From NCBI GenBank assembly GCA_947462995.1, contig CANHUG010000002.1, positions 1 to 38,280 of the forward strand: a DNA stretch of 38,280 nt. The letters run 5' to 3'. This document shows positions 2,917 to 37,174 of the stretch, piece by piece. The translations under genes and the position numbers were made by a program. Within the stretch, counting starts at the first letter, position 1; each line of letters opens with the position of its first letter. The notes beneath the pieces were generated by a model. It was given only the letters and a program-made list of their open reading frames with translations. It was not told the origin of the DNA and did not search any database. Source of the stretch: Verrucomicrobiales bacterium. GTDB taxonomy: Bacteria; Verrucomicrobiota; Verrucomicrobiia; Verrucomicrobiales; V1-33.

Positions 2917-2924
2917 TGTTTTGG

Positions 2925-8101: not shown

Positions 8102-9427
8102 ATGGACGATTCATTCCTCCGCAAATCCGATGAACTGAGCCGCCGGCGGTTCATGGGTTACGCCAGCAAGTCACTGCTTGGTGTCAGTGTGATTCCGACG
8201 ATGCTTCCGCTAGCCGGTCGTGCTGCGGGCAAGCCTGAAGGCATTCAGGTGTCGCCTAGCCAGACGAGCGGGCGCAAGCCGACGGCGCGGAACATCATTT
8301 ATCTCTATATGTCTGGCGGGATGACGCATGTGGACACGTTTGATCCGAAGCCTGAGGCTGGGGAGAAGGTGGCTGGGCCGGTGAAGGCGATCAGCACGAA
8401 GGCGGACGGCGTGATGATTTCCGAGTATTTTCCGATGTTGGCGAAGCAGATGGACAAGGTTTGTCTGTTCCGCGGGTTGACGACGACGCAGGGTGCGCAT
8501 GAGCAGGGGAATTACTTCATGCACAGCAGCTATACGATGCGTGGTACGATTCAGCACCCGGGGATCGGGGCGTGGCTGCTGCGGATGGAAGGGAAGACGA
8601 ACCGGACGCTTCCGGGGAGCGTGTGCATTGGCGGTGGGGCCAATGGGGGCGGTGCGGGCTTCATGGAGAGCAAGTATGCGCCGCTGTACATCGGGTCGCC
8701 GAATGACGGCGTGCCGAACAGCCGTGCGCTGACGGGGACGCGTGAGTTCGACGACCGGCGCATGCTGGCGGAGAAGTTCGACATGGCGTTCCACAGCAAG
8801 TATGATGTGAAGCGGGTGCGGGCGTACAGCGACATGTATGATGACGCGGTGCGGTTGATGCGTTCGGAGGATTTGAAGGCCTTCAATCTGAATCTGGAAG
8901 ATCAGAAGGTGCGGGACGAGTATGGAACGGACGGGTTCGGGCAAGGGTGCCTGCTGGCGCGGCGCTTGATTGAGAACGACGTGCGACACGTGGAAGTGAC
9001 GCTTGGTGGTTGGGATACGCACAACAACAACTTCCAAGCGGTTCAGGGGCTTGCGGGGCGGCTTGACCAAGGGCTTTCCGCGCTGCTGAATGATTTGGAC
9101 CGGCGCGGGCTGCTGAGTGAGACGCTGGTGGTGCTGACGACCGAGTTCGGGCGGACCCCGTATGTCAACGAGAACGACGGGCGGGATCACTTCCCGAAGG
9201 CGTTTTCTGGATTGATGGCTGGCGGCGGGATTGCGGGTGGCCAGGCCCATGGGAAGACGAACGAGCATGCGACCGATGTGGTGGAGGGCAAGATGTCTCC
9301 GCCGGACTTCAATGCGACGATTGCCTATGGTTTGGGCTTGCCGCTTGATGAAACGATTTACAGCCCGTCGAAGCGGCCGTTCACGGTGGCGGACAAGGGG
9401 CAGCCGGTGACTTCGGTATTCGGTTGA
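8102..9427 (+). CDS. DUF1501 (sulfatase-fold) protein with twin-arginine signal
   Basis: Tat motif SRRRFMGYASKSLLGV. Also MSGGMTHVDTFDPKP, GGWDTHNNN and TEFGRTP...GRDH, typical of DUF1501. It starts 39 nt after the DUF1549/1553 gene. Confidence 0.85.
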   Translation: MDDSFLRKSDELSRRRFMGYASKSLLGVSVIPTMLPLAGRAAGKPEGIQVSPSQTSGRKPTARNIIYLYMSGGMTHVDTFDPKPEAGEKVAGPVKAISTKADGVMISEYFPMLAKQMDKVCLFRGLTTTQGAHEQGNYFMHSSYTMRGTIQHPGIGAWLLRMEGKTNRTLPGSVCIGGGANGGGAGFMESKYAPLYIGSPNDGVPNSRALTGTREFDDRRMLAEKFDMAFHSKYDVKRVRAYSDMYDDAVRLMRSEDLKAFNLNLEDQKVRDEYGTDGFGQGCLLARRLIENDVRHVEVTLGGWDTHNNNFQAVQGLAGRLDQGLSALLNDLDRRGLLSETLVVLTTEFGRTPYVNENDGRDHFPKAFSGLMAGGGIAGGQAHGKTNEHATDVVEGKMSPPDFNATIAYGLGLPLDETIYSPSKRPFTVADKGQPVTSVFG

Positions 9428-9445
9428 GCTGGTAGAGTTTACGTT

Positions 9446-9489
9446 GAACCCGGCGGTTTCATTTGTGGGGCCGCCGGGTTCATTGTTTT
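9446..9489 (+). terminator. Intrinsic-terminator-like hairpin after the DUF1501 gene
   Basis: An 11-bp perfect stem GAACCCGGCGG / CCGCCGGGTTC (9446-9456 / 9471-9481) around a 14-nt loop, followed by ATTGTTTT. Confidence 0.55.
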
Positions 9490-9576
9490 GGATGTGCGGC
9501 GTGGAGAAGAGTTGCCCGGAAGGTGGAGACATGCGACGATGCGGCTGTGGCTGCTGAATATTCAAACATCTCGTCC

Positions 9577-10440
9577 ATGATTTGGCGGTCGAAGGTTTAC
9601 GGGATGGTGATGGCGGCGATGATGCTGGTGGTGGCGGTGGGGGTGCGAGCTGCGAGCATGGTGGTGAATGTTTCGTGCGGTTATCTTTACGGAGCGGGCG
9701 GGACGGCGTCGGTTGACCGATTGGATCCGGGTACGTTGTGTGTGCTGGTGGCGGATATTGGGGGCGATGGGTTTGATCCACCTGCGAGGGGATGGGTGGC
9801 GGACGACGACGTAGTGCTGACGGTTTTTGATGGGGAGTATCCGCTGGTGGCGGGGGGGACGAAGGGATTTGATCTTGCGTCTGGCGGGACGGAGCCGGGA
9901 TTGTTCAGTCGTTCCCTGGGAATTGATCTGGCTCAGTTCGGGGGCCGGACGGCTCCGTTGCCGGTGGCGTTGCGGTGGTTTCCCGGGTACCGGGCGACTG
10001 GGGTGAATGTGGCGACGGATGTTCCGTTGCCGGGGACTGTGTATGGTGAGTTCCGGCGTTTGGTGCCGATGTATCCGGAGGCGGGGACGAGTGGCTGGAC
10101 ATTGCCGATGCGTGCGGGGACGAACCTGACGCTGGATCCGATTGCTACGGCGGAGTTTGGTGGGGTGGACGCTCCGGCGATGGCTGCGTGGGTGATTTCA
10201 CCGGTGATTCAGCCTTCGGGATTGGTTCTCGATGCGGGTACGGGAGCGGCGACGAAGTTGCGTTTTCTGGGAGGACCGGGGATGCGGTACCGGGTGCAGC
10301 GGTCAGGAGATCTGCGGCAGTGGAGCACGGAGGCCACGGTGGTGGCGGATGGAGGTGGACTGGGATTGTGGACCGAGTTATCGGCGCTGGCGGGAGGGCG
10401 GGCATTTTACCGTGTTGTCGGGCCGTTGCCGCAGCCATGA
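9577..10440 (+). CDS. Exported hypothetical protein, paralogue A of the 36169-36867 gene
   Basis: Preferred start is ATG 9577 (MIWRSKVYGMVMAAMMLVVAVGVRA, signal peptide). Residues ...LCVLVADIGGDGFDP...FSRSLGIDLAQFGGRT..PVALRWFP...YGEF.R.VP.YP...LDP.AT.EFGG.DA align colinearly with the 36169 protein. It carries an extra C-terminal beta-sandwich-like tail (MRYRVQRSGDLRQW...FYRVVG) in place of a PEP-CTERM. Confidence 0.7.
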   Translation: MIWRSKVYGMVMAAMMLVVAVGVRAASMVVNVSCGYLYGAGGTASVDRLDPGTLCVLVADIGGDGFDPPARGWVADDDVVLTVFDGEYPLVAGGTKGFDLASGGTEPGLFSRSLGIDLAQFGGRTAPLPVALRWFPGYRATGVNVATDVPLPGTVYGEFRRLVPMYPEAGTSGWTLPMRAGTNLTLDPIATAEFGGVDAPAMAAWVISPVIQPSGLVLDAGTGAATKLRFLGGPGMRYRVQRSGDLRQWSTEATVVADGGGLGLWTELSALAGGRAFYRVVGPLPQP

Positions 10441-10461
10441 AGTTTCCGCCAACGAATCCGA

Positions 10462-10989
10462 GTGATGCATGAAGGATTGAGAGACGATGGACTGCGGGTG
10501 GCGGTGATGGTGGCGGGATCGCTTGCGATTGGAGCCATCATTAATGCTGTCCGGACCGATGCGGTGCCATGGAGGTATGAGCCGAAGGGGCAGCGGATGG
10601 CGGGTGAGCTGGCGCGCATGGGGTCTGAGGAGGGCGAGACGAGGGAGGTGGCGGCTGGGGCGATTGAGTTGGGTGAGTTGGCGGGGATGGTGCGGGAGCG
10701 GTCGGTGCTGGTGATTGATGCGAGGGCGCCGCTGTTTTTCCGGATGGGGCATGTGCCTGGGGCGGTCAACTTGCCTAGGGAGGGGTTTGCATCGTTTTTG
10801 GAGAGGAGTGGTCTTCTTGGGGAGGGGAAGACGAGGGCAGTAGTGGTTTACTGTCAGAGTGAGACGTGCGAAGATAGTCGAATGGTAGCGGAGTCGTTGC
10901 GCCGGTTGGGGTTTGCGAGTGTGCGGGTGTTTGGTGGAGGCTGGCGGCTGTGGCTTGAGAGCGGTGAACCTATAGAGAAGTCGCCATGA
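10462..10989 (+). CDS. Membrane-anchored rhodanese-domain protein
   Basis: N-terminal TM segment VAVMVAGSLAIGAIINAV. The rhodanese domain reads VLVIDARAPLFFRMGHVPGAVNLP ... VVVYCQSETCEDSRMVAESLRRLGFASVRVFGGGWRLW, with a Cys in the active-site loop position. Confidence 0.8.
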   Translation: MMHEGLRDDGLRVAVMVAGSLAIGAIINAVRTDAVPWRYEPKGQRMAGELARMGSEEGETREVAAGAIELGELAGMVRERSVLVIDARAPLFFRMGHVPGAVNLPREGFASFLERSGLLGEGKTRAVVVYCQSETCEDSRMVAESLRRLGFASVRVFGGGWRLWLESGEPIEKSP

Positions 10990-11429
10990 GGACGATTGGA
11001 GGAGCAGGGTGGACGGTGCTGGCAAGCCGGTTGGTTTTCAGCGGGGTGTTCTTGTGGGCGGGTTGGGGGAAGTTGCGGGATCCGCTGGCGTTTGCTGATA
11101 GTGTTGCCTTATTTCGCGTGTTGCCGCACCCTGCGCTGGTGAGTCTGGTGGCTCTATGCGTGCCTGTGCTGGAATGGTTGGTTGCTGTTTTGCTATGGGT
11201 GCCGCGGTGGCACCGAGCGGCGCGGTGGGTGATGACGGCGCTTTTCGCTCTGTTCGCGGTCGCGTTGAGCGTGGCGCAGATCAGGGGGTTGGTGATTGAC
11301 TGCGGATGTTTCGGGTCGGGTGATGCGACGAAGTGGAGCGTTCCGCTGGCACTTGGGCGGGCGGTCGGGCTTTTGGGGTGGGCGGTAATGTATGGTCGGA
11401 AAATCCAGGGGCGTTCTGCGGACCAGTAG
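10986..11429 (+). CDS. MauE/DoxX-family integral membrane protein
   Basis: ATGA start/stop overlap with the rhodanese gene. It has four predicted hydrophobic helices. VFSGVFLWAGWGKLRDPLAFADSVALFRVLP and a CGCFG motif are typical of MauE-like redox-associated membrane proteins. Confidence 0.7.
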   Translation: MRTIGGAGWTVLASRLVFSGVFLWAGWGKLRDPLAFADSVALFRVLPHPALVSLVALCVPVLEWLVAVLLWVPRWHRAARWVMTALFALFAVALSVAQIRGLVIDCGCFGSGDATKWSVPLALGRAVGLLGWAVMYGRKIQGRSADQ

Positions 11430-11512
11430 TACCGAGAAATTCGACTCATTTTCGAGAGAACTCTGTACTATTGCTTAAAAGAATTGACGTGCCCCCTGAA
11501 CTCGGGTTAAAA
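11427..11512 (+). promoter_or_regulatory. Hairpin plus -35/-10-like hexamers in the only sizeable gap of the cluster
   Basis: TAGTACCGAG (11427-11436) pairs with CTCTGTACTA (11461-11470) at 9 of 10 positions, then TTGCTT follows. Downstream are TTGACG (11484-11489), a 17-nt spacer and TTAAAA (11507-11512). The region is visibly more AT-rich than its surroundings. Weak evidence. Confidence 0.2.
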
Positions 11513-11558
11513 ACCGTTCACCGCGGGCGAGGACCCGTACTGGGCCCACCCCTTACCA

Positions 11559-12833
11559 ATGAATAAACAAACATGGCAGAAAGCGTTGGTGATTGTAACG
11601 GCTCTCGGGGGAGTGTGGGCTGGGGTTCACGCGTACCGAGCGGCCTCGAACAGCGGGGTTGCTCATGAGAATGCCCGGATGGAACGGGTTGAGGTGATTG
11701 ATTTTGGGAGGGACCGGGAAGCCTTTTACGAGCTTGGGAAGGTGTCGCTGGGTTCGATCAGTCTGCTGTCATTTGGCGTGAAAGGGATAGATGGAGGTGC
11801 GATTGGGGAGGTGGCGAGTTCTTGTGCGTGTCTGCGGATGGGTTTGGCTGGTGGTAAAGGGGCTGAGCCTACTATTTCAGGGCGGTATTTTGCGGTTAAT
11901 TCCGGGAAGGTGGATGTGACGCTGGCGGTGAGCCGCGTTGACGCTGGAGGGAAAGAGGCGGTGGCGACGATCCGGGTAACTGGGGAGGTATTGCCCGGGG
12001 ATCCGGCGGTGGCGGCGAGGCTATCGGCGATCGCTCGGACGCCGCTGTTGGATTTCGGGGTGGAGGAAACTGGAGTGCAAACGGGGGCTGGGGTAGCGCA
12101 CGCTGAGGTGAAGGCGGGGCGTGGGATGGTGATTGATGTGCGAGCGGCTGAGGAATACGCCGAGTCACATGTGGTGGGGAGTTTGAACATACCGGTTTCG
12201 CAGCTGAAGGTGAGTCCGGCGTTTCGGGGGCGGGATCTGTATCTGACTGGGTCGGCGCTTTTGACCGGGCCGCTGCAGCAGGCGTGTGTGCAATTGCGGA
12301 AGCAGACGAGCGCTAAGGTGTTTGTGGTTCCGGGGGGAGTGCAGGGTTGGGAGGCGGCGGGAGCGGCCGTGTTTCATCAGCTTGATCCGAGGCCGGTGAT
12401 TGGAGCGGTTGGGTTGGCTGATGCAGTGGAGCGGGTGGCCGGGCAGGGGGCGGTGTTTGGGGCGGCTGGGGTGGACGATTTTGACCGGCAGTATTTCTTT
12501 CCGGAGAGCGAGGCCTTGCCGGAAGCGGTGGGGGAGTGGCGAGAGTGGGTTGAGGGGGCGTTGAAGAAGGCGACAGGGCCTGTGGTGCTGGTTGACGTGA
12601 TGGGTGATCGGTTTGGGGTTTTGAATCAGGGTGCGCCTGCGTCGTGGCTGGGGCGGGTGTATTATCTGAGGGCTCCGGTGTCGACGTATCGGGAGGCGGT
12701 CAGCCGCATGGCGGCGTTGGCGGCGGCGGAGCCGGGGCAGGGTACGTCGTCGGTCCATGGTTTTGCGCGGTCTGACCGGCTGCGCCGCGCTAATCTTCCA
12801 TCCGTTCCCGGCTGCGGGACATGTCCGAAATAA
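11559..12833 (+). CDS. Membrane-anchored DUF1573-like / rhodanese-like protein with C-terminal CxxC
   Basis: TM anchor ALVIVTALGGVWAGVHAY. The beta-sandwich segment ending VASSCACLRMG resembles the DUF1573 SCGCT motif. The rhodanese-like domain reads GMVIDVRAAEEYAESHVVGSLNIP ... KVFVVPGGVQGWEAAG, with no Cys in the active-site loop. The extreme C-terminus is PGCGTCPK. The stop lies 17 nt before the giant gene's preferred start. Confidence 0.7.
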   Translation: MNKQTWQKALVIVTALGGVWAGVHAYRAASNSGVAHENARMERVEVIDFGRDREAFYELGKVSLGSISLLSFGVKGIDGGAIGEVASSCACLRMGLAGGKGAEPTISGRYFAVNSGKVDVTLAVSRVDAGGKEAVATIRVTGEVLPGDPAVAARLSAIARTPLLDFGVEETGVQTGAGVAHAEVKAGRGMVIDVRAAEEYAESHVVGSLNIPVSQLKVSPAFRGRDLYLTGSALLTGPLQQACVQLRKQTSAKVFVVPGGVQGWEAAGAAVFHQLDPRPVIGAVGLADAVERVAGQGAVFGAAGVDDFDRQYFFPESEALPEAVGEWREWVEGALKKATGPVVLVDVMGDRFGVLNQGAPASWLGRVYYLRAPVSTYREAVSRMAALAAAEPGQGTSSVHGFARSDRLRRANLPSVPGCGTCPK

Positions 12834-12850
12834 TTTTCAGCAGGCACACT

Positions 12851-15800
12851 ATGAAAGCGAAGTTTCCAATTATCCAGTTCCTATCGGCATTACTGGCCGG
12901 GCATGGGCTGGCTGCCACGGTTCCGTACTCGGAGGATTTCGAGGGCGCGGTTGGGCCCGAGTGGTCCCTGTCCACGGTCAACAATGCGCATGTGGCGGCG
13001 TTTACGAAGTTTTCCGGACGGTTTACGAATCAGGCGCAGACCTTAACGATGACCGGGCTGACGGTCGGGACGAGTTACACGGTGGTGTTTGATCTGTATG
13101 TGATCGATTCTTGGGATGGGAATGCCGGGCCTGACTATTTCAAGGTGTTGGTTGATGGGACGGCGCGGTTCCGGGATACGTTCAGCAATTACAATGGGAA
13201 TCCTCCGAGTCAGCCGCAGACGTACGGGGGTTCCCCGGATGTCGGGAGGACGCACCTTGGGTTCAGCGGATCGTATGTGGATGCGATCTACCGGACGATT
13301 GAGGTGCCGTTCACGGCGACTGCGGCGACGGCGTCGATTGCGTTTCAGGGCGAGAATCTGCAGGATGTGAGTGATGAATCGTGGGGAGTGGATAATGTGG
13401 CGGTGCAGACTTCGGCAAGTCTTGCGGCGACGACGGTGGCGTCAGTTTCATTGCCGACAGAGGGCGGGGCGACGAGTGGTCCGATTGACAGGTTCAGCAT
13501 GACCGCGACGCGGGTGCTGAATTCGACGTCTGCCAATGCGGCAGGGAGCTATGAGTTGCGGAGGTCCGGGGCGGACGGTGTGTTCGGGAATGGAGATGAC
13601 ACTGTGTTGCCGTTGGTGCCTTCGTATGCGGGAGGAAAGACGGTGTCTTTTGTGGTGACGGACAATCCGCTGCAGCCAGGAACGTATCGGTTCCGGACGA
13701 TCGGGTTGCTGGACGGAGCGGGCCTGCCAGTAACGGATTTTGTGAGGGTTTTCAGTGTGACTGATCCGCTGGTGGGGCGGTTGGAGAATCTTGACAACAA
13801 CACCCTGGAGCAGGCGACGGCGCTGCCGATGACGGAAACGCCGTCGGGGTCCGGGTTTCTGACTGCGCTAGGTGCGGGGACGTTCAGCACTACGGCGGAT
13901 GTTGATTATTGGAGATTTGATGCCGAGACCGGGGATCGGGTCACGGTGCGACTGGAGGCGGATGCGCTCGGGGTTTATCCGCAGATTTACCTGCAGAACG
14001 GGGCAGGAGCGAATCTGGTAACGGCTGGGGGGGATTACAATGGGACCGTCCAGATTCAGAACTATGTGGTGACGTCACCGGGATCCCTGCTGCTGCGGGT
14101 GTTTTCTACCAATGCGATCGCGCGGTATCAGATGCGGGTGGATCAGGCGCGCGGGGCACTGCTGGAGGTGGAAGCCAACGACACTGCTGCCACTGCGAAC
14201 GTGCTGCCGGTCACCGCCACGATCAGGATTGCGGGGGCGTTTCCTGCGAGTGACAGCGAGGGGGACTTTTTCCGGCTAGGCACTCTGAATGCGGGGAATG
14301 CGATTGATCTGGATGTCTCGTTGCCATCCGGCGGCGTGCTGGTGCCGGGCGACCTGACACTGAACCTGTATGCGGACAGCAATGCGACGCCGATTGCCAC
14401 TGCGGCGGGAGGATTGCTAAGTCACACGCTTGCGGCGGACGGGGTGATCTATGCGCGCATCCGCAGCGGGACGGTGCGGGGACTGCGGGCGCAGTACGTG
14501 ATGGGGCTTGCGATCTCCGATGGCGTGCCTCCGAGGGTGACGGGTACGTCGTTTCCTGTGGAGGGCGGGAGTGCCGCAGATCTGATCGACCGGTTTACGG
14601 TTGCCTTTTCGGAGGAGATGCGGGCAGCGCCGGTGAATGATACGGCTAACTTTGAGCTCCGATCGGCTGGGCCTGACGGGGTGTTCGACAATGCTGACGA
14701 TGCCGTTTATGCGTTTGTGAGCGGAGGCTACACGAGTGGACTGAGTTCGGCGTATCGGGTTACCAATGGACCGCTTCAGGCGGGAGCCTACCGTTTCCGG
14801 GCGTCTACGGCACTGGTGGACCGGGTGGGCAATGGGATGGCTGCCCCGTTTGAGAGGAATTTTTCGGTGGTTGGGTTGCCTGGATTTCCGGGTGAGAATC
14901 GCAGCAATGGGAGTCAGGCGCTGGCGACGACGATGAGTCCTAGTCCCAGCGCCGATCCGGATGGGACGTTTGCTGTTGGCAGCAGTTATGGATCTGGTGG
15001 CAACAACTCGTATCATCTGGTGAGTGGTCGACTTGATGGCGATGCGTTTGATGATCTGGTGGTGGCGAACTACAGTTCGTCGACGATCACGGTGGTGCTG
15101 GGACGTGGTGACGGTTCGTTTGCCGCGCCGGTGACTTATCCGACAGCAGCGAACCCGCACAGTGTGGTGCTTGGGGATCTCAATGGTGACGGGAATCTGG
15201 ATGTGTTCTATTCGAATTACGGTGCTGCGTCGGTGGGCGTCCGGCTTGGGAATGGTGACGGGACACTGGGGGCGGCGGTGAATTACGCAGTCGGGTCGAA
15301 TCCTCACCGGGTGGTGATGGCGGATTTCAATGCGGACGGCCGATTGGATGCGGCGGTAGCGAATTACGGCAGCAACACCGTCAGTGTCTTTCCAGGGAAT
15401 GGGGACGGGACTCTTGGGACGCGGGTGAATGTGGCGGTAGCGGGAGGGCCCTTGGGCATTGCGGCTGGAGACGTCAATGCGGACGGCCGGATCGACCTTG
15501 TGACAGCGAACTACAATGCGCACAATCTCAGTGTGATGCTAGGGGACGGGGCGGGTGGGTTCGGACCGCCGACGGTGACTTCCGGAGTGTCCGGGAGCAA
15601 TCCGTACGCGTTGGTGCTGAGTGATTTCAACGGGGATGGTGCGCTGGATGCGGCGACGTCCCACCTGAGTACAGCGAACGTGGGATGGTTTCGAGGGAAT
15701 GGGGACGGGTCGTTTGCTGCCGGGGTGGCGGTTTCGACCGGGTTTGGCGGTAACTATCATCTGACCGCGGGTGATCTGAATGAGGATGGAAGGCCGGATC

Positions 15801-24800: not shown

Positions 24801-27800
24801 GGCGATTCGGCACGGGGATTGTGGATGTTGATGTGCGTGTGAGCGAACCACTCAATGGCTTGCCGTTCTTCAGTCTGGTTCCTGCGAGTGGAGGATTCCC
24901 AGTGCCGGTGACGCTGCGTGAGGGTGCGGATCCGCTGCAGTATGGCGGGAGCTTCACGATCACTGAGGACACTGCGGCGGGCAGCTATCAGGTTTCGTAT
25001 TCGATGCGGGATGCGAACAGCAACCGTGGTGCGGGAACCTCCCCGACGGCTGGGTTGGTGATCGATACGAAGGGGCCGGCGGTGGACGGATTGACGCTGA
25101 GTGCGACGGCACCGATTTTGAATGACCCGGCGAGTCCGGCGAGCATTGAGGTGACGCTGCATCTGGATGAGGTGTCGGCCGGGGTGCCGGAACTGCAGTG
25201 GAGTCTGACGAGACTGCCGGCCAATCTGACGGGGACGCTGGTGGATCTGGTTCCGGGGGTTGATGCGCGGTCGTGGAGTGGATTGATCACGCTGCCGGCG
25301 GGGGCGGGTGCGCCGGAGCCGGAGGATCTCCGGTTTTCGTTCCGTGGGTCTGACGACCTTGGGAATGAGGGGCGCGAGATCAAGGTGACCTCATCGTTCG
25401 AGGTGTATCAAGGGACGCTGCCGGCGCTGGATGCGCCATCCGGTTTCTCGGCGGTGGCGCGTGCTGGCGGTGTCGTGGACCTTGGGTGGAGCCGACGTAA
25501 TGGTGCGTCGGGTTATCAGATTTATCGGTCTGCGGTCAATGGTGGGCCGGAGGCGCTGGTGTCACTTACGGTGATCAGCGACCCGGCGGTCCTGTCATTC
25601 AGTGACGTTCCTCGGGAGGATGGGGAATATCATTATGCGATCGCGGCGCTGCGGACGGCGAACGGGGTGACAGTGGCTGGGACGGCGTCTGCGCCGCCGG
25701 TGCATGCGACGGCGGACGAAGTTCCGCCTGCTGCGCCGCACGACATGGGGCTGACGCTCGCGAGCAACGGAATCCTATCGCAATGGCTGGCGGGCAGTCC
25801 GGCTGAGGTGGGGGTTCGCTATCGTGTGTATCGGGCTGGTGCGCCGATTGATTCGTCGGCGGGGCTGACGCCACTGACGACGACGCTGACTGCGACGCGT
25901 TATCTTGATCCGAGTCCGGTTCCGGCGCTGCGGTATTACGCAGTTGCTGCGGTGGATGCGGCGGGCAACGAGTCGGAGCTATCCAACAGTGCCTATCTGA
26001 ACGCCACCCTGTGGGCGGTGAGTTCGATTACGGTGGAGAAGCCGGAGAGTGGCCCGCTGGCGTTGTCATGGGCGAATGCGTCGCCGGACATCAAAGGGTA
26101 CAAGTTGTTTCTGGGGCCAGCCCTTGGAGGGACGCCGATGTCGCCGACGCTGCTGCCATCGCCGGCATTTACCGATCATGGGTATGTATCGGGCGATCGG
26201 CGGTACAGCATTGTGACCGTTGACAGTGCGGATGCGGAGAGTCCGTCGCGTTCGATTGTGCTTCCGGGGATTGAGTACTCGCTGATGCCGGATCAGACGG
26301 TGCGGCGTGGGTTGGTGAGTCGGCTGCGGGTGAGTGTGCGGAATCTTTCCGAGACTGAGACGCTGGCGAATGCGCTGGCGAAGATCACGCTGGCTGGGCA
26401 GGTGCACCAGTCGGAAGCGTTCAGCCTTGCTCCATTGGAGACTCGGGAGATCGGGGTAGTGGTGGGAGGATATGCGAGTCTGACGGATGCGACGGCCCCG
26501 GTGGCGTTGCGGATTGAATCGCGTCCGGAGGAAGGTGCGCTGCTGCGTTATCTGGGGAGCGGGACGGTGGCGGTTGCTGATGGTGGACTTTCCGCGGAGG
26601 TGATTCCCGGTAGGTTCACGCGCGGAGGGAATGGGAGTTTTCAGTTCAGGGTGCGCAATACGTCGACCGAGACGGTGGAAGTGGTGTCTGCGAAGAGCAG
26701 CGGCGGGGCTGATTCGCCGGATTTGCGTGTGAGGCTGATTGATCCTAACGGGAACGTGCTTTCGGGCAGGCAGTTGCGGATCAATGTCGGGCCGAGTGTG
26801 GTGACGGTGGCGGACGGGACGAGTGTGTTGCGGATGGCGCCGGGCGGGGAGTTTGTGTCTGATGCGATCGAGATTCCGGTGCCTGAGACTGGCGCGGCGC
26901 AGTTGACCGTGCAGATTGAGGTGGACCGCGCCTACTATCGGTACGGAAGGCCGGAGCAAGTGACTTCTCCGGGAACGACGGCGCGGGAGACGGCATCGCT
27001 GACGGACGTGAGTTACGAGGGTGTTATTGTGAGTGCGCTTCCTGCGGTTTCGAATGGAGATCAACCGGTGGTGATCACGGGGAGGGCGGTGGCGAGTCCG
27101 GGTGGGACGGTGCCGGTTCCGAATGTACCGCTGCGCCTGGGGATATCGTCGAGTGGGTTTGAGCGGGTGAATCAGGTGACGACGGATGATGCGGGGAACT
27201 TCAGTTTCCGGTTTCAGCCATTGGCGACGGAATCCGGGCGTTACAGTGTCTGGGTTTCGCATCCGGACCTGTTGCTCAAGACGGCGCAGGCGTCGTTTGT
27301 GATCAGCCGGGTGACGATGGAGCCTGGGTCAGCGTCGATCCGGGTACCGCGGAACTACACACAGCGGATCGTGCCGGTGATTCGGACGGGAGATGGAACG
27401 ACTGCGACGAATTTGAGGCTTGAGCCGGACGGGGCGGTGCCTGCGGGGATTGCGCTATCGCTGGATGCCCGGGCATCGCTTGGGGGCGGAGAGAGCACCT
27501 CTCTGCCATTTACATTCATTGGTGACAGCACTGCTGCGGCGACGGGGAGCTTCCGGCTGCGGCTGGTCAGTGACGAGAACGCGGCTGGATGGGCCTCGCT
27601 GGTTGTTGAGTATGGACTGACGGCGGCGACGGCAGCGGCCACGTTCACGCCGAATGTGATCGATACCGGGGTGAATCCGGGAGGAGCGGAGTCGGAGACC
27701 TTCCGGATCCACAGTGTCGGGTTGGTGCCACTTCGGAATGTGCAGTTGGCCCTTGTGAGGATTGATGGCGGGGCGGAGCTGCCACCGCCGGCGTGGGCGA

Positions 27801-30800
27801 CGCTTGCTGTGGCGCCGCTGACGGCGGAGATTCCTGTGGGTGATGAATTGCCGGTGACCTTGAATGTTCAGCCTCCTGGCGACACAGCGCCTGGCGATTA
27901 CTTCTTTGATATCCGGTTCAAGGCTGCGAATTACAGTGATGTGAGCATTCCGGTGCGGGTGGTGATTACTGCATCGGGGACGGGCAATGCGATTTTCAAG
28001 GTGGTCGATCTGCTGACGCTGACACCTAATCCGAAGTATGTGGGTCCGGGGAATGCGCAGCATCCGGATCCGCTTTATCAGGGTGTGCTTGGTGCGACGA
28101 TTCAGCTGCAGAGCGAGGATGTGGCAAGTTTTGTGCGCAGCGCGACGACGGACGGGTATGGTGAGGCGGACTTCCGGGTGGGTGGCGAGCCAGCGTTGCC
28201 GGCCGGCCGGTACAAATACCGAGTCACGGCTGACGGGCACGACAGCCGGACGGGAAGGTTGCTGATCCGTCCGGGAGTGACGCTTAGTGAGACGGTGCTC
28301 ATTCCGAACCGTTTTGTGACGATTGAGTGGGACGTGGTGCCGATCACGATCGAGGATCGGTATGAGATTCTGCTGGAGGCGACTTTTGAGACGAACGTTC
28401 CGGCTCCTGTGGTGACGGTGAATCCGCCGATTCTGAATCTACCGGCGATGTGTGCGGGGAGTGTGTTCTACGGGGAGTTTGCGTTTACGAACCACGGCCT
28501 GATCCGGGCGAACAGCTTCACGTTTGTGCCTCCGGTGAGCGATGAGTACAACCAGTTTGAGTTGCTGGACGCGATCCCGACTAGCATTGATGCGAGGACG
28601 ACGATTGTGGTGCCGTACAAGGTTACTAGCAAGAAGTCGTTCCCGGGGATTTTGTGCGGACCTGTAAGCAGTGTCGGCGATGGTAGCGGAGCTGGTACGG
28701 GCGGTGGTGCTGGTGGTGCTGGCTCCGGCTCTGGATCAGGGGCAGGCGGCGGAGCGGGAGCGGGTGGAGGCTCGGGCTCGGGATCTGGCGCGGGCGGCGG
28801 ATTGGGTGCCGGGAGTGGATCTGGCTCAGGGAGTGGGTCTGGAACTGGGACAGGAACGGGAACAGGAACAGGAACAGGAACAGGAACAGGATCGGGCAGT
28901 GGATCCGGGTCCGGATCCGGCTCTGGAAGCGGGAGTGGTTCCGGGAGCGGGAGCGGCTCTGGAAGCGGTTCCAGTTCGGGGGATTGCATTCGCTATACGG
29001 CGTGTTTCAACTACACGTACAAGCACAAGTGTCCGTGGGGTGATGAAGTGACGAGCAGCGGAACGGTTTGCGCGAACTATGCGTATGGGAACTGCGGAGG
29101 AACGAGCGGGAGCTCTTCCGGGGGGTACTACTATTCCGGCGGGCCAGGATTTGGTGGCAGCGGTGGCAGTGGTGGCTGGGGCGGCTGGGGCGGTTCGATC
29201 AAGGGGAGCTCGGACGGTTGTTTCCCTGACTTCTTCGACTGCAAGAACCGCAATCCGATCGGCTGCTGGGTCAACTATGTGACGCGGCAATTCGAGGATG
29301 AAGCGCTTGACCTTGAGACGCTGGTGCCGGGGAGCGGCAATGTGGTGAACCGAGTGCGGCGTTTCTATCGGGACAACCGCTGGAACTTCGAGCATGTGGA
29401 TGCGGCGCTGGTGATCAAGACTGACGGCAGTGGTCCGTCGGAGTTGAGTCACCTTGGGAGCAAGTTTTCTCCGGTCGACACGACGCGCCTTGAGTTCACG
29501 AACGGGCGTGACCGGATCCGCCGTGTGTCGGAAGGGTGGAAGCTCAATGCGGCGAATGGCAACTGGCGGGAGTTCGATGAGAACGGGCGGCTGCAGAAGT
29601 CCGGCCGTGATGCGGCGACCCTGCTTGTATACAATTACGACGGTGACGGGAACGTCAGCGGTCTGGGAGGGGCGGACGGCACGCCATTCCTGACATTCAC
29701 CTGGTCTGGCGGCCGCCTTACCGGCGTGACGGACGTGCACGGCCGGACGGTCGGTTACGAGTACAACGGCAATCTGCTTTCGACAGTCACGGACAGTGAA
29801 GGGTTTGTGACCCGCTATTTCTACGACGGGGCCGGTCGGATGGACCGATACATTGATGCCACGGGGCTGACGCACCGGCTTGCCTATGATGGTGCCGGAC
29901 ATGCACTCTCGCTGCTGGACGAGGAGGGGAATGGCCGGTTGTTCAGTTATGATTACGACAAGCTGCGGCGCGAGTATTACCTTGGCGAGCAGTTCACGAG
30001 CGGGTTCCTGCGCGAGCGCTGGTACGACAGCGACGGGAACATCCGTCTCGGCAAGATCAACGGGCAGCTGGTCCGCGAGGTGACGCTTGTGGACCGGACG
30101 GAGACGCTGAAGTACGGTGATGGATCGGAAGTCGTGCAGGAGTACGACGAGAACGGTGCGATCCGCAAAGTCAGCATGCCTGACGGATCTGTACAATCGT
30201 ACGAGTATGATCCGGTGACGCGGGCGGTGAGCAAGGCTGTGGATCCTGCGGGAGTCGTCACGCTCTACCAGAGGGATGCGCAGGGCAATCTGCTGCAGAT
30301 GACCGAGGCGGCCGGATTGCCCGAGCAGCGCAGGACGGTTTTTGCGTACAATGCGGCCGGCAAGCTTGCGTCCGAGACCGTTACGATGAATGACGGACTT
30401 GGTGCGACTGCGAGCAGCTATACATATGATGCCGAGGGGCGGATTGAGACGCGGACGGACGAGATGGGCCAAGTGACCCGCTATCAGGAGCACGATGCGA
30501 ACGGGTATGCGACGCGGGTGATCGATCCTGACGACCATGCGATGCGGTTTGTGTACGATGCGAGCGGTCGGATGAAGAGCCGGCAGGACGCGTTGGGCAA
30601 CCGCTGGCAGTTTGAGTACGACGCGTTCAATAATGTGACGGCGACGATTGATGCGGCGGGGGGGCGTTCGGAGTCCTACTACAACATCGAGAACCTTCCG
30701 TCGCGCACGGTGGACGCTCTCGGGACGGTGACGAGCCTGATCAAGTACGGGCCTGATGGTCGGGTTGCGGAACAGCGGGATGCGGCAGGCCGCGTTTCGA

Positions 30801-33061: not shown

Positions 33062-35077
33062 ATGAAAGCGATTCAGCGACTGCTGCTTCCCGCCATAGCC
33101 CTCTTTGCCGGACCGCTTCCGCGGTTGAGCGCACAGGATGTCTGCGCGCGGGTGAAGATTCAGATTGAGCAGGAGCTCACCTTCGAGCGTGAGGCTTTTG
33201 AGGCACGGATGACGATCACGAATGGATTGCCGGAGACTGGTCTGACGGATCTGACGGTCACGGTGAACTTTGCCGATGAGGCGGGGGAGCCGGTGATTGC
33301 GACCAGTGATCCGAACAATCTGGCGGCTCAGTTTTTCATCCGACTGCAGGATGGGAGCAGCATTCCGTCGTCGATAGCGTCCGGGGCTGCGGCATCGATC
33401 AAGTGGTTGATCATTCCGAGTGCCGGGGCGGGTGGTTCGCTGCCTGGGGGTGTGCGATATCTGGTGGGGGCGGAGGTGAACTACAAGGTGGGTGGGAGTC
33501 CTGAGAAGGTGACGGTGGCTCCGGATACGATTTCGGTGAAGCCGATGCCGCGGCTGACGCTGGATTATTTTCTGCCGTCGGAGGTGAATGGAGATGATCC
33601 ATTTACTGCGTTCATTGAAGAACCGGAGCCGTTTTCGCTGGGAGTCCGGATCAAGAACACCGGGTTCGGGCCGGCGACGAAGTTGAAGATTGATTCGAGC
33701 CAGCCGAAGATTGTGGAGAATACGCAGGGGCTGCTGATAGCGTTCCGGCTGCATGGTTGTTCGATTGATGATCTGCCTGCTGCGCCGACGCTGCTGGCGG
33801 ATTTCGGGACGATTCCTGGTGGGACTACGAAGACGGGGCGCTGGCTGATGACGAGCAGCCTTTATGGGCGGTTTATTGAGTTCAACGCGAGTTTTTCGCA
33901 TGCTGATGATCTTGGCGGGCGGCTGACGTCATTGATCGAGAAGGTGAATGCGCGATTGATGGTGAACGACGTGCTGGTTGATCTTGCTGGCCGGGATACG
34001 GTTCGAGATTTTCTGGCGTACACGACTTCAGCGAGGACGGAATTGAAGGTGTGGGAGTCCAGCGGGGTGGAGACGGAGGTCAGTGATGTTTCCGCAGGTT
34101 CGGCGGTGAGTGGGTCGGGCAGTACCCATGTGGTGACGAATCCTGGTGCAGCGGGGTCGCTTTATCTGAAGAAGACAGATCCGAACAATGGGAGGCGGAA
34201 GATTGTGTCGGTCACGAGGGCTGACGGGAAGAGTCTGTCTCCTGTGAATTCGTGGCTGTCGAAGACGTACATTCCCGGTGCGCAGCGCTACAATTACTTT
34301 TTGAATGTCTTTGATACGGGCAATGCGGCTGGGCATGCCTATACGGTGGTGTTTGAGGATGTGGTGCTGGCGAACCGCAAGCCGCGGATGATTGATCCGG
34401 GGAACCGGATTTTTTCGGCTGGCGCGACGTTTGAGATGCTGGTGCTGGCAGACGATCCTGATGCGGATCCGCTGACGATTTCTGCGTCATCGCTGCCGCA
34501 GGGGGCGACGTTCACGAAGGTGAATGAAGGGGTGAGTGCGCTCCGGTGGGCGCCGACGGCGGCGCAGGTGGGTGATTACACGGTTGGGTTCACCGTTTCC
34601 GACGGGTTGCTGGAGGACCGGAAGAACATTACGATCACGGTGACGAGCGATCCGATTTCGATCGCATGGCGGTCGAGGATTTTCGGGCCGGATGGGAGGC
34701 CGTTTGAGATTTTCTTTACGGCTGACGACGATGGCGACGGGATGGACAACGGATTGGAGTATGCGCTGAACAAGGATCCGCGGAATGGTGACGAGAGTGC
34801 GATTGTGATGCGGATTGAGTTGAATGCGGCGGATGAGATGGTGACGACCCTGACATACATTCGGCGGACGGACGATCCGAACCTTGAGGTGGAGGTGGTG
34901 GGATCGGATTCGAGCCGGGATGCGGGGCCATGGGTGGTGCAGCCGCAGGCACCGGATCCGGATCAGGGGGGAGTGCCTGACGGGATGCAGCGGTGGAAGG
35001 CCGTGGACAGTGTGCCGATTTCTGCGAGCCATCCGCGGAGGTTTCTGCGGGTCCGGGCGAAGGTTGGGGCTCCTTGA
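33062..35077 (+). CDS. Exported multidomain hypothetical protein (beta-sandwich domains, Ig/cadherin-like domain, Ca-binding-like DxDxD motif)
   Basis: ATG lies 21 nt after the giant gene's stop. Signal peptide MKAIQRLLLPAIALFAGPLPRLSAQ. The Ig-like segment reads DPDADPLTISASSLPQGATFT...LRWAPTAAQVGDYTVGFTVSDG, followed by TADDDGDGMDNGLEYALNKDP. The C-terminal ...HPRRFLRVRA resembles beta-sandwich tails seen elsewhere in the window. No catalytic motif recognised. Confidence 0.8.
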   Translation: MKAIQRLLLPAIALFAGPLPRLSAQDVCARVKIQIEQELTFEREAFEARMTITNGLPETGLTDLTVTVNFADEAGEPVIATSDPNNLAAQFFIRLQDGSSIPSSIASGAAASIKWLIIPSAGAGGSLPGGVRYLVGAEVNYKVGGSPEKVTVAPDTISVKPMPRLTLDYFLPSEVNGDDPFTAFIEEPEPFSLGVRIKNTGFGPATKLKIDSSQPKIVENTQGLLIAFRLHGCSIDDLPAAPTLLADFGTIPGGTTKTGRWLMTSSLYGRFIEFNASFSHADDLGGRLTSLIEKVNARLMVNDVLVDLAGRDTVRDFLAYTTSARTELKVWESSGVETEVSDVSAGSAVSGSGSTHVVTNPGAAGSLYLKKTDPNNGRRKIVSVTRADGKSLSPVNSWLSKTYIPGAQRYNYFLNVFDTGNAAGHAYTVVFEDVVLANRKPRMIDPGNRIFSAGATFEMLVLADDPDADPLTISASSLPQGATFTKVNEGVSALRWAPTAAQVGDYTVGFTVSDGLLEDRKNITITVTSDPISIAWRSRIFGPDGRPFEIFFTADDDGDGMDNGLEYALNKDPRNGDESAIVMRIELNAADEMVTTLTYIRRTDDPNLEVEVVGSDSSRDAGPWVVQPQAPDPDQGGVPDGMQRWKAVDSVPISASHPRRFLRVRAKVGAP

Positions 35078-35104
35078 TGACTGAAAATTCAAAAGATCTG
35101 ACTT

Positions 35105-36163
35105 ATGAAAACGATTCCGCTACTGCCACGGCTGATTGCGATAGCGGCGGCAGCCGCTCCGGTTGGTGCCCAGACGACAGGGGGTGCGACGGCGCTCGCG
35201 ATCAAGGGGGCCTCTGATTCCCGGCTTTCGCTACCATATCAGCAACCGAGAGTTGATGGGGGGACGGTGGCCGGCGTGACGGCGACGAGTCTTGTGCTAG
35301 CGGGGGAGACGTGGATTCCCGGGCAGTTCACGCGACAGGCGGATGGTACCGGGAAGGTGTGCTATGCGTTGTTTCTGGATGGGCCGCTTGAGGGGGTGTT
35401 TTACAAAGTGCTGAGCAACAATGAGGACACGCTGGTACTGGACACTGAGGGCGACAAGCTGAACGAGCACCCGCTGGGAGCGATTCCGTTCGGGACGCGG
35501 GTGGATATTGTTCCTTACTGGACGGTGGCGGAGGTGTTTGGGGCGGATGAGGCGTCGGTGCTGCTGGAGCCACGGGTTTCTCCGCTGTTTCCGACGGATG
35601 ATCTGCTGTTGTATGACAACGGGCGGTCGGGAATCAACAAGGCGCCGGTGACGACGATTTACTATCGGAAGAACCAGGGGTGGCGGAGTGTGGCTGCGCC
35701 GTCTGACAGCAGTGCGGAGACGATACTTCCGCCTGGAGCGGTGTTCACGGTGCGGCGGCGGGGAGCCACGGATCTGGAGTTGATTAATTTCGGGGTGTAC
35801 TACCGGCAGCGGCGAGCGGTGTTTGTGGCCGGGGGTGCGACGGAGGGGAACGATCAGTATGTGTCGCTGCTGCTGCCGGAGCCAGTGACGCTTGATGAGT
35901 CGAATCTATCCAACGGGGTTGTCCGGCCTTCTGCGAGTCCATTGCTGCGGGCGGATGAGGTCCTTGTGTGGCGTTCTGCGAATCCCGGGTTCAATCAGGC
36001 GCCTGACACGGTGCTTTACTACCGGCCTGCGATCGGGTGGCTCAAGGTAGGAGACAATACGCCGCTGGGCAGTTCGTTTTCGCTCGCTCCAGGCGAAGCG
36101 ATCATCATCCGCAAAAAGCCTTCCAGTCCACCGGCTGACTGGCTGCAAATTCCACCTCCTTGA
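35105..36163 (+). CDS. Exported hypothetical protein with an internal ~60-aa duplication
   Basis: Signal peptide MKTIPLLPRLIAIAAAAAPVGAQ. Repeat A (SPLFPTDDLLLYDNGRSGINKAPVTTIYYRKNQGWRSV...ILPPGAVFTVRRRG) aligns with repeat B (SPLLRADEVLVWRSANPGFNQAPDTVLYYRPAIGWLKV...SLAPGEAIIIRKKP). Confidence 0.8.
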   Translation: MKTIPLLPRLIAIAAAAAPVGAQTTGGATALAIKGASDSRLSLPYQQPRVDGGTVAGVTATSLVLAGETWIPGQFTRQADGTGKVCYALFLDGPLEGVFYKVLSNNEDTLVLDTEGDKLNEHPLGAIPFGTRVDIVPYWTVAEVFGADEASVLLEPRVSPLFPTDDLLLYDNGRSGINKAPVTTIYYRKNQGWRSVAAPSDSSAETILPPGAVFTVRRRGATDLELINFGVYYRQRRAVFVAGGATEGNDQYVSLLLPEPVTLDESNLSNGVVRPSASPLLRADEVLVWRSANPGFNQAPDTVLYYRPAIGWLKVGDNTPLGSSFSLAPGEAIIIRKKPSSPPADWLQIPPP

Positions 36164-36168
36164 AGTTC

Positions 36169-36867
36169 ATGATTCCGGCTTTGCGTTCATTTTTTGTTGT
36201 TCCTTCGGTGCTTGCTGCGGGTGCGGTGTCGCTTGAGGCGGCCAGTATATCCCTGAATATCTCGAGCGGGTTTCTGTTTGGGTCTGCGGGTCTGACGGTA
36301 GCGGACCGGCTACCGGTTTCGACGCTTTGTGTGCTGGTTGCCGATATGGATGGGAATGGATTTGATCCGGTTCCTGCCGGTGCGTTTGTGGGTGGGGGCG
36401 ATCAACTGATCACGATCACGGATTTGGAGCATGATGTTTCGCTGGGGGGGACGCGTGCTTTTGACCTGAGTGCGGGGGGGGGCGGGACGCCGGGATTTTT
36501 CTCCCGGACGCTCAACATTGATCTGGCGCAGTTTGGCGGACGGACGGAAGCGGTGCCGGTGGCGTTGCGGTGGTTTCCGACGCTGTCTGCTGTCTCTGAT
36601 TTTACTCCACTGATGTCCTTGCAGGGGACGCCGTATGGTGAGTTCAGCCGTGTGGTGCCTGCGTATCCGAATACTGATTCATGGATACTGCAGCTCAATG
36701 GCGGGGCGATTTTCGATCTGGATCCGCTGGCGACGTCTGAGTTTGGAGGGATTGATGCGGAGGCGTCGGCGATGGCGACGTACGTTGTGGTGCCGGAACC
36801 GGGAGTGGCAGGCCTTGCGGCGCTTGGGGTGGTGGCGGGGTGGCGGCGGCGAGTCAGGTGTGGCTGA
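36169..36867 (+). CDS. PEP-CTERM-anchored exported protein, paralogue B of the 9577-10440 gene
   Basis: Preferred start is ATG 36169 (MIPALRSFFVVPSVLAAGAVSLEA); the track's 36160 start is TTG. The C-terminus VVPEPGVAGLAALGVVAGWRRRVRCG has PEP, a hydrophobic helix and an Arg cluster. It shares an identical 23-mer CCGGTGGCGTTGCGGTGGTTTCC (36556-36578) with paralogue A (9961-9983). Confidence 0.8.
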   Translation: MIPALRSFFVVPSVLAAGAVSLEAASISLNISSGFLFGSAGLTVADRLPVSTLCVLVADMDGNGFDPVPAGAFVGGGDQLITITDLEHDVSLGGTRAFDLSAGGGGTPGFFSRTLNIDLAQFGGRTEAVPVALRWFPTLSAVSDFTPLMSLQGTPYGEFSRVVPAYPNTDSWILQLNGGAIFDLDPLATSEFGGIDAEASAMATYVVVPEPGVAGLAALGVVAGWRRRVRCG

Positions 36868-37174
36868 GGAGGGGGCGGTGAGTTGGGGTGTTCCTGAGTG
36901 AGATTCAGGGACGTTCCAAATGGAGCGACGGGGTGTTCACTGGGATCTGGTCCGCGGATCCGGGTGACGGTGTGCTGTTGGTGAGGTTGTTTCCGGTGGG
37001 GATGGCGCTGAGTGCCGTTGTGTGGAGGGAGCTAGCTGCTGCGGGCGGGATGTGTGAGGGGTTGGTGCGTGGTTTTGGGGTCGAGTGTTAGGCGCGGCGG
37101 CGGGCTTTGGCTCGATCAGTCAGCTGCGTTCGGGTTCCTGCTTGATTTCAATCTGCAGCTGGCGCGGGACGAAG

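Follow-up and report, generated by a model that had tools for sequence, protein, structure and literature searches.

A conserved eight-gene block around the gene for a giant Sec-exported Rhs-type protein in a freshwater Verrucomicrobiaceae-type bacterium

We have analysed a stretch of 38,280 nucleotides from a Verrucomicrobiales bacterium (assembly GCA_947462995.1, contig CANHUG010000002.1, positions 1 to 38,280 of the forward strand), hereafter the window, in which eight genes, all on the + strand, run from 9577 to 36867 in the order A-B-C-D-G-E-F-H. The largest of them, G, encodes a protein of 6,729 residues with a signal peptide at its start and an Rhs region near its end. The closest relatives are Verrucomicrobiaceae metagenome-assembled genomes (MAGs) from ponds and lakes, and the host is a freshwater Verrucomicrobiaceae-type bacterium. 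An earlier note, made from the sequence without database searches, had suggested that the set may be a self-contained maturation, export and anchoring system for a giant Rhs-type surface protein. From the comparisons described below we favour, tentatively and at a rough probability of 0.45, a reading in which the eight genes form one conserved block, its three modules being grouped around a giant surface protein exported by Sec. The set of eight is undescribed, its parts come mostly from known families, and every functional link within it is one that we infer. The genes, and the parts of G that matter for the argument, are the following.

9577 to 10440, + strand: A, exported protein of 287 residues, paralogue of H
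10462 to 10989, + strand: B, rhodanese-domain protein of 175 residues (Pfam Rhodanese, 57.7 bits)
10986 to 11429, + strand: C, MauE-family membrane protein of 147 residues (Pfam MauE, PF07291, 90.4 bits, cut-off 27)
11559 to 12833, + strand: D, DUF1573-like/rhodanese-like protein of 424 residues (weak Rhodanese match, 27.7 bits)
12851 to 33040, + strand: G, 6,729 residues with a Sec-type signal peptide (FG-GAP, Big_5, CARDB, RHS repeats, Rhs_assc_core)
28673 to 28975, + strand: Gly/Ser/Thr low-complexity linker of G (about residues 5275-5375), dividing the stalk from the C-terminal Rhs unit
28985 to 29266, + strand: 8-Cys module of G (residues 5379-5472), directly N-terminal of the Rhs region
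29267 to 32632, + strand: cocoon of G made of Rhs/YD repeats, with the Rhs-associated core and DPDGL (residues 6590-6594) at its end
32633 to 33037, + strand: Cys-rich tail of G, 135 residues with 11 Cys, Gly/Lys-rich, following DPDGL
33062 to 35077, + strand: E, exported protein of 671 residues (Big_9/He_PIG Ig-like domain, residues 453-526)
35105 to 36163, + strand: F, exported TIGR02597 family protein of 352 residues (NCBIfam, 127.3 bits against a cut-off of 50)
36169 to 36867, + strand: H, exported protein of 232 residues (H-type domain and probable PEP-CTERM end, with VPEP, a hydrophobic stretch and RRR)

The listing of open reading frames (ORFs) and their translation reproduce the eight genes and the junctions given in the earlier note, which from A to H and with the start codons chosen there are 21, -4, 129, 17, 21, 27 and 5 nt. 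All junctions are thus of 5-27 nt or overlapping, C overlapping B by ATGA, with the exception of the 129-nt gap between C and D; the start of G is the ATG after the stop codon of D. Inside the block no further convincing terminator was seen besides the hairpin that precedes it.

The arrangement is conserved. The earlier note had proposed a survey of gene order in related genomes, and in those compared here the order A-B-C-D-G-E-F-H is kept in Verrucomicrobiaceae and Akkermansiaceae relatives down to approximately 40-55% identity, both flanks differing. The 5' half (A-B-C-D and the N-terminus of G) is found at 75-90% identity in L004, L005 and L006 (L numbers denote loci of other genomes), and also in L083 (95%), in L084 (40-58%), in L007 and L008, and in L163 and L164 (A 44-51% identical), A being the first gene of the block in L004, L005, L083, L084, L163 and L164. 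The genes upstream of A in the window are common to L004 and L083 and absent from L084, GlnD takes their place in L163 and a MazG-like gene in L164; since these flanks differ, the conserved block starts exactly at A. The 3' half (the C-terminus of G, then E-F-H) is present in L001-L003, L009-L012 and L015, with F 52-87% identical and a different gene downstream of H each time. Since relatives with other flanks have the arrangement too, the block is not a chance alignment of ORFs, and we are dealing with operon-type conservation within one family-level clade. Some of the loci do not add to this: the DUF1501 protein encoded upstream of the block is 100% identical in L004, L005 and L083, which therefore represent near-identical strains and are not independent evidence of synteny. 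L004 and L009 come from a single MAG, on two contigs, as would fit a giant gene broken up by the assembly. Taken with the short junctions, these comparisons suggest that the block is probably an operon.

Beyond the clade, the association of E, F, D and a giant gene is best supported by a single case, a reshuffled locus in an Opitutaceae MAG (L016). Its order is an RCC1/Big_7/TSP3 protein, E, F, a protein combining DUF1573, rhodanese and GCNTCPK, and a giant protein. The identities to the window proteins amount to 40% for E, 33% for F and 27% for the D-like protein, and the giant, of at least 2,956 residues, is 35% identical to the stalk of G over 1,025 residues. The D-like gene is located directly upstream of the giant, as is D in the window. 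Two further searches were made: a homologue search with A and D concatenated returned relatives of D alone, and a metagenome scan with the D alignment returned mostly generic rhodaneses, the patterns used lying within the rhodanese domain, with true orthologues only in L083 and L084.

The products of B, C and D each carry cysteine pairs. The family matches bear out the rhodanese and MauE identities that the earlier note had assigned to B and C, as well as that of the Sec-signal Rhs protein for G. B has an N-terminal hydrophobic segment, which we read as a putative membrane anchor, and a CX4C loop (YCQSETC, with Cys131 and Cys136) that is retained as YCQ(S/T)x(T/S)C in orthologues of 40% identity; it possesses the conserved active-site Cys in a CX5 loop by which a catalytic rhodanese is recognised, and gives sub-threshold NCBIfam matches to rhodanese selenoprotein families. 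In C the motif DCGCFG comprises Cys106 and Cys108, and DCGCFG, GWGKL and PVLEW, the latter two with the Lys and Glu, are conserved in orthologues of 48% identity, so that C displays the CXC followed by F-G and the conserved Lys and Glu of a MauE protein. Proteins of this family mostly have CGC and then F-G in the loop between transmembrane segments TM3 and TM4, with Lys and Glu conserved in TM1 and TM2; MauE proteins replace DsbB in E. coli, the CXC motif being required, and a generalist role as DsbB-like oxidase is ascribed to MauE (bioRxiv 10.64898/2026.03.05.709764).

D is more composite. A hydrophobic N-terminal segment, again read as a putative membrane anchor, is followed by a DUF1573-like part with an invariant SSCxCL, which aligns with the 27%-identical homologue of L016. 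D itself gives no PF07610 (DUF1573) match at E<=0.1, whereas the L016 homologue scores 37.9 bits; of the earlier description as DUF1573-like and rhodanese-like, the second half is thus carried by the weak match of D itself and the first only by that homologue. A selenoprotein form of DUF1573 has UGC. The rhodanese domain of D is devoid of the catalytic Cys, the aligned position reading LTG or LVD by eye, and the C-terminus consists of an invariant GCxxCPK after a Gly/Ser/Arg-rich stretch of flexible look. Both SSCxCL and the terminal GCxxCPK are shared by the D orthologues and the L016 homologue. Among 165 loci, the terminal GCxxCPK is limited to the D orthologues and this one Opitutaceae homologue, and every gene that ends in it lies directly upstream of a giant gene. 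From their motifs, B, C and D plausibly constitute a membrane-bound thiol-disulfide relay, and both their position and the distribution of cysteines in G suggest that it would serve G in particular. A literature search for a link between MauE and rhodaneses returned no relevant paper.

After its signal peptide, G comprises about 550 residues of unknown type and then Big_5, FG-GAP blocks between about residues 830 and 2750, and an Ig-like stalk (CARDB, Big_7, Glucodextran_B, Big_1) that extends up to about residue 5270; PDB sequence searches with the N-terminal 700 residues of G, and with E, returned nothing useful. The linker that follows is a (GS)n/(GT)n sequence encoded by imperfect tandem DNA repeats at 28720-28968, with periods of 6, 18, 36 and 48 (TRF). 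Tandem tracts of this type easily vary in length and break assemblies, and in the MAG of L004 and L009 the giant gene appears to be split over two contigs. The shell is complete, with PF05593 RHS_repeat at 226 bits in 11 stretches, TIGR01643 at 200.9 bits and a TEN_YD-shell match, and the Rhs-associated core (TIGR03696, 88 bits against a cut-off of 32.5) ends in ...NPLTKFDPDGL, after which 135 residues remain. DPDGL corresponds to the DPxGL autoproteolysis motif and is the predicted cleavage site. In the PDB the shell matches 8h8a (3.6e-48, about 820 residues), 8qjc (7e-45) and Tse15, more weakly TcdB2-TccC3, and also the bacterial teneurin-like protein (TLP) 9pt5 (7e-32); all these alignments stop at DPDGL. 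Cysteines are few, 26 in 6,729 residues, and nearly all of the conserved ones fall in two clusters that bracket the cocoon. The first cluster, at residues 5201-5472, holds 10 Cys, the last 8 of which make up the 8-Cys module and are invariant (8/8) in 6 aligned orthologues.

The second cluster is the tail, presumably the cargo of the cocoon. The tail shows 46-85% identity among orthologues, which in the Rhs region are 47-85% identical, and 9 of its 11 Cys are invariant in the 6 aligned orthologues, the remaining two being each replaced in one. A phmmer search against 1.84 billion representative proteins gave three hits, two long ones at the extreme C-terminus of proteins of 938 and 1,247 residues, most likely fragments of orthologues, and a third that is a fragment of 91 residues. 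As there are only those three hits, the tail is clade-restricted and not shuffled among toxin scaffolds. It has no match in PDB or Pfam. No small immunity gene lies directly 3' of G, the next gene being E (exported, 671 residues), which starts 21 nt on. Judged by these sequence comparisons, what G has at its end is no polymorphic toxin tip, and the toxin side of the earlier note is weakened accordingly, the region after the Rhs core being conserved among orthologues and confined to the clade, with no immunity gene beside it. We also considered E as an immunity protein and found no support for it, as it is large, exported and conserved outside Rhs contexts.

Of the remaining four genes, A and H are related to each other. 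Both have an H-type beta-rich domain of about 190 residues and are 50% identical over about 200 residues; in A it is followed by a C-terminal domain of about 75 residues, 'YxVQRSxDLxxW...FYRV', and the protein has no Pfam or NCBIfam match. The C-terminus of H is VVVPEPGVAGLAALGVVAGWRRRVRCG, which scores 18.8 bits on PF07589, just below the cut-off of 20.7. The earlier description of H as a PEP-CTERM paralogue of A thus stands on the 50% identity and on a clear VPEP end, the Pfam match being borderline. A C-terminal domain of the form '...Y.V..S.DL..W ... (F/Y)(Y/L)R(V/L)' occurs in A (about residues 215-285), in E (about residues 590-671) and in the H-family proteins of L036 and L067; it has no Pfam or NCBIfam match, and takes the place of PEP-CTERM at the ends of exported proteins.

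E consists of an N-terminal part of 450 residues of unknown type, the Ig-like domain, a TSP3-like calcium-binding motif (residue 555) and a C-terminal domain of about 100 residues. In L001-L003 and L009-L015 an orthologue of E lies after the giant gene, and in L016 the 40%-identical homologue precedes F. F, which the earlier note had listed as without recognisable motif, clearly belongs to TIGR02597, the 127-bit alignment covering positions 19-349 of the 363 of the model; it is all-beta, and reading its sequence by eye shows an internal repeat. The models that AF2 gave for F (pLDDT 72) and for H (pLDDT 77, pTM 0.72) are all-beta as well; the generic beta-sandwich and pilin-like Foldseek matches of these models we take as noise, drawing no function from them. 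We saw no support for E or F as an outer-membrane barrel, both being large, exported, Ig-like or beta-rich and without the C-terminal signature of outer-membrane proteins. A literature search for TIGR02597 found no paper mentioning the family.

The distribution of F reaches far beyond the block. A scan with the F alignment, taking one genome per species, gave 74 loci, all but one of them labelled as Verrucomicrobiota lineages, and a giant Rhs gene adjoins F only in the Verrucomicrobiaceae/Akkermansiaceae clade considered here. Of the 69 loci with room for an H-family gene after F, 53 have one directly downstream and on the same strand by an iterated HMM, and 42 of 66 H-family proteins end in PEP-CTERM. 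In addition, F domains form the extreme C-terminus of several large secreted proteins, such as one of at least 3,672 residues with FG-GAP, cadherin and beta-helix domains, a 2,017-residue Calx-beta/PKD/M11 protein and a 1,397-residue subtilase. Of 47 distant loci, 11 have F either fused to a protein of 900 residues or more or placed directly after one, and the same holds for 10 of 364 background genes (Fisher p = 2e-6, the underlying gene calls being approximate). To our knowledge, neither the F-H pairing nor the F-domain fusions have been described. The F-H pair is not specific to giant genes; it is found throughout Verrucomicrobiota, often next to housekeeping genes.

Several of the fusions have a TSP3-like calcium-binding motif about 100 residues before the F domain; in the window the TSP3-like motif of E lies about 115 residues before its end and F is the next gene, so that E and F together look like a split version of the C-terminal arrangement of these large secreted proteins, and E-F-H may be a unit of its own. 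Two local arrangements can be added. In L021 (2172-10957) adjacent genes of 1,519 and 1,397 residues both end in a TIGR02597 domain, the second being a subtilase, and no H-family gene was detected near them; they look like a tandem pair of F-domain cargo proteins. In four Opitutales loci (L057, L072, L075 and L078, about 300-12700) the TIGR02597 and H-family genes end a housekeeping run of hisS, serA, plsY, hom, an aspartate-kinase-like gene, thrC and a leuA-like gene, and a C-terminal extension of about 330 residues replaces PEP-CTERM in the H-family protein.

As to export, the window proteins scanned gave no family match to PAAR, VgrG, a type I secretion system (T1SS) or TpsB, and neither G nor any other window protein matched PAAR, VgrG or a DUF4123-type family, in agreement with the earlier note, which had seen no type VI secretion system (T6SS), T1SS, TpsB or small immunity gene in the window. 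No outer-membrane translocon or other export device was found in the block and no exosortase in the 38-kb window. Sorting of PEP-CTERM proteins requires an exosortase. A defence system was considered and dropped, PADLOC giving no match for all small proteins and the Rhs end. Thus, of the three functions formerly proposed for the set, maturation (B-C-D) and anchoring (F-H, with E and A) are plausible and no component for export was found; the set is also not self-contained, as an exosortase would have to come from elsewhere and passage through the outer membrane is unaccounted for.

The one-block reading can be put as a sequence of steps. G would be exported by Sec, and its Cys-rich modules would then be oxidised or isomerised by the membrane-bound thiol-disulfide relay, with C as the quinone-linked oxidant, B, D or both as carriers, and the flexible GCxxCPK end of D as a swinging arm. 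The Rhs core would cleave at DPDGL and keep the tail within the cocoon, which the FG-GAP/Ig stalk would display at the cell surface. E, F and the probable PEP-CTERM protein H would make up a surface-docking set that relies on an exosortase encoded elsewhere, A being a non-anchored paralogue. The tail could be a disulfide-rich toxin acting outside the cell or in the periplasm, or an adhesion ligand; we lean towards G being a contact-dependent effector or adhesin without classical polymorphism. A stronger version of this reading combines an oxidative-folding relay dedicated to its substrate, from MauE (CGC) to the CX4C rhodanese and the DUF1573-like carrier and on to the two Cys-rich modules of G, with a docking system found throughout Verrucomicrobiota, in which a TIGR02597 domain, free or fused, would bind an H-family PEP-CTERM protein and tether its cargo to the envelope, G being a lineage-specific disulfide-rich effector without immunity gene; taken as a whole, we regard this version as unlikely.

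A number of observations weigh against the one-block reading. With regard to the block as such, its operon status is derived from spacing, strand and synteny only, and part of the synteny is shared ancestry, as the complete examples all come from one family-level clade; moreover, two Akkermansiaceae-type MAGs (L013 and L014) retain G-E-F with no detectable H-family gene (after 11002 two other ORFs, of 523 and 351 residues in L014, take the place of H). Regarding the relay, the membrane anchors of B and D are putative, being read from hydrophobic segments, and given a generalist MauE, B-C-D may serve the whole envelope and not G. No MauE gene was found within 10 kb of the L016 giant, which has only 3 Cys in its visible 2,956 residues. 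Furthermore, the cargo of Rhs cocoons is usually unfolded, which sits uneasily with the formation of disulfides before release. As for docking, most F-H pairs stand away from any giant gene, the Opitutales pair adjoining genes of threonine and leucine biosynthesis, and the models of F and H have no PDB match by Foldseek at E<1e-3 (best E = 5e-3). Finally, nothing in the block accounts for the passage of a protein of about 700 kDa across the outer membrane.

Some of these points are what would be expected if three independent units, namely an envelope disulfide set (B-C-D), a giant adhesin and E-F-H, had been juxtaposed by descent, an explanation that we consider possible, if doubtful. It accommodates the free-standing F-H pairs and those beside housekeeping genes, the generalist role reported for MauE and the missing H of L013 and L014; a promoter could also sit in the 129-nt gap before D, and since E and F are collinear with the cargo, TSP3 motif, domain and F that end some single proteins, the partner of F may be E and not G. 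Mere juxtaposition is harder to reconcile with an eight-gene (or five- plus four-gene) order that persists at approximately 40-55% identity as the flanks turn over in at least four lineages, and with junctions that, bar one, are of 5-27 nt or overlapping. In L016 the order is reshuffled, yet E, F, the D-like gene and the giant are adjacent, with the D-like gene directly upstream of the giant, and in the 165 loci the terminal GCxxCPK is found only in D genes beside giant genes.

A further explanation, which we think rather unlikely, takes G as a non-toxic giant adhesin or cell-cell recognition protein, with the cocoon and tail playing a structural, teneurin-like role and the neighbours aiding folding and anchoring. 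A conserved, non-polymorphic tail without immunity gene agrees with it, as do some 5,000 residues of FG-GAP propellers and Ig-like domains, typical of adhesins, and teneurins show that the Rhs/YD fold can be re-used for adhesion. However, the Rhs-associated core with its DPDGL is intact, which suggests that cleavage and release are still possible, and there is no known binding partner or phenotype; the explanation also overlaps with the one-block reading, from which it differs only in the role given to the tail. That G is a classical polymorphic Rhs toxin, with E, F or H as its immunity protein and delivery by a T6SS or another machine encoded elsewhere, is very improbable. The complete cocoon, the DPxGL core and a C-terminal domain of about 15 kDa are indeed as in T6SS Rhs effectors, Tc toxins and TLPs, and genes do follow immediately downstream of G. 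Yet conservation of the tail equals that of the remainder of G (orthologues 47-85% identical), and its absence from any other architecture among the 1.84 billion representatives is contrary to what a shuffled toxin domain would show. G carries a Sec signal peptide but neither PAAR nor VgrG; the proteins encoded downstream are large or exported, of families that occur phylum-wide without Rhs neighbours; and no PADLOC or toxin-immunity family was matched.

Should the one-block reading hold, its interest would be threefold. The TIGR02597/PEP-CTERM pair, which also occurs in fusion with large secreted enzymes and adhesins, is a testable candidate for surface docking in bacteria of the Planctomycetes-Verrucomicrobia-Chlamydiae group (PVC), and bears on the way in which proteins of very large size pass the outer membrane of these organisms and are retained on it. 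For MauE, whose capacity to form disulfides was demonstrated only recently, the block brings candidate partners (a CX4C rhodanese and a DUF1573-like protein with a CxxC tail) and a candidate substrate together in one place. A conserved Cys-rich cargo without immunity gene, carried by a stalk protein of 6,729 residues, would widen the uses of Rhs cocoons from polymorphic toxins towards those of animal teneurins. If the modules are independent, what is left is a giant adhesin gene of the usual kind among unremarkable neighbours.

The surroundings of the block are marked by two features.

9445 to 9482, + strand: intrinsic-terminator-like hairpin, a 17-bp stem followed by TTGTTTT
37336 to 38223, - strand: IS66 transposase gene (DDE_Tnp_IS66, 194 bits, and the IS66 C-terminal element)

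The earlier note had announced a hairpin (at 9446-9489) and an IS66 end, and both were recovered here. The hairpin closes the upstream unit (6014-9427, + strand), a pair formed by a PSCyt2/PSD1 (DUF1549/DUF1553) protein and a DUF1501 protein that ends at this strong terminator, and is the 5' limit of the block; a pairing of DUF1549/DUF1553 with DUF1501 is typical of PVC bacteria. On the other side, an IS66-type end, GTAAGCG, is found near 37176, roughly 308 nt past H, where about 300 bp had been stated. The transposase is probably N-terminally incomplete, as its match starts only at position 68 of the DDE_Tnp_IS66 model, and the insertion is specific to this genome, since relatives have other genes at the same position. 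The GC skew of the + strand, (G-C)/(G+C), amounts to +0.19 to +0.42 over positions 1-37000 and drops to 0.03 over the IS66 element (37001-38280), which suggests a recent insertion from elsewhere. The high skew is not simply an effect of the coding strand, because it spans minus-strand genes at 430-3800 and 5213-5965. Long antisense ORFs, of up to 917 residues, lie inside G on the - strand (28826-31579, 26066-27262 and 14417-15523); they are the usual artefact of high GC content and are rejected by the codon-usage score. Naive gene calling by ORF length picks such ORFs in this high-GC DNA, and a codon-model gene caller under-calls minus-strand genes, the GC skew being strong, so that counts resting on the caller are approximate.

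Among known systems, the nearest are the bacterial TLPs, YD-shell toxins that are exported by Sec and displayed at the surface (Raoelijaona et al., Nat Commun 2026, PMC13018210). As in these, G has a signal peptide in place of a T6SS adaptor, a long N-terminal region of adhesion type, and a YD/Rhs shell enclosing a C-terminal domain of about 15 kDa. TLPs are built on a superfold of FN-plug, NHL and YD-shell, mostly with a TIP domain, whereas G has the shell only: it gave no NHL, FN-plug or TIP match (FN-plug and TIP being searched via Pfam only), and its propellers are of the FG-GAP type and lie thousands of residues upstream of the shell. G is also about three times longer, and its tail is conserved and without a small immunity gene, in contrast to the hypervariable C-terminal domains of TLPs, which are accompanied by one. 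The TLP survey found these proteins in six phyla, Verrucomicrobiota not being among them (PMC13018210). With T6SS Rhs effectors and TcB-TcC cocoons G shares the RHS repeats, the core ending in DPxGL and a cargo C-terminal of the cleavage site. It differs from them in having a Sec signal peptide and no PAAR, VgrG or TcA partner, in a cargo that is Cys-rich, conserved and clade-restricted, and in a cocoon that a Gly/Ser linker joins to the end of a stalk of 5,300 residues.

The accessory genes can be compared in the same manner. C resembles the DsbB-like MauE proteins in its CGC followed by F-G and its conserved Lys and Glu, and its proximity to the gene of a Cys-rich exported candidate substrate recalls MauE and MauA in the MauE/MauD-dependent maturation of the small methylamine dehydrogenase subunit; the block, however, has no MauA, MauD or thioredoxin-fold partner, the neighbours of C being a rhodanese with CX4C and a DUF1573-like/rhodanese protein whose terminus carries a CxxC. 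B recalls TsoB, a rhodanese with a loop of paired (seleno)cysteines that works with a membrane redox protein, the spacing of its CX4C being that of UxxxxU in TsoB. This is an analogy only, as B scores 40 bits against a cut-off of 805 and is not a member of that family, and its partner is MauE and not DsbD or DoxX proper. H, with its VPEP, hydrophobic stretch and RRR, ends in the manner of proteins sorted by the PEP-CTERM/exosortase system. On the whole, the block is best described as a variant of the Sec-exported Rhs/YD-shell surface proteins in unusual gene company.

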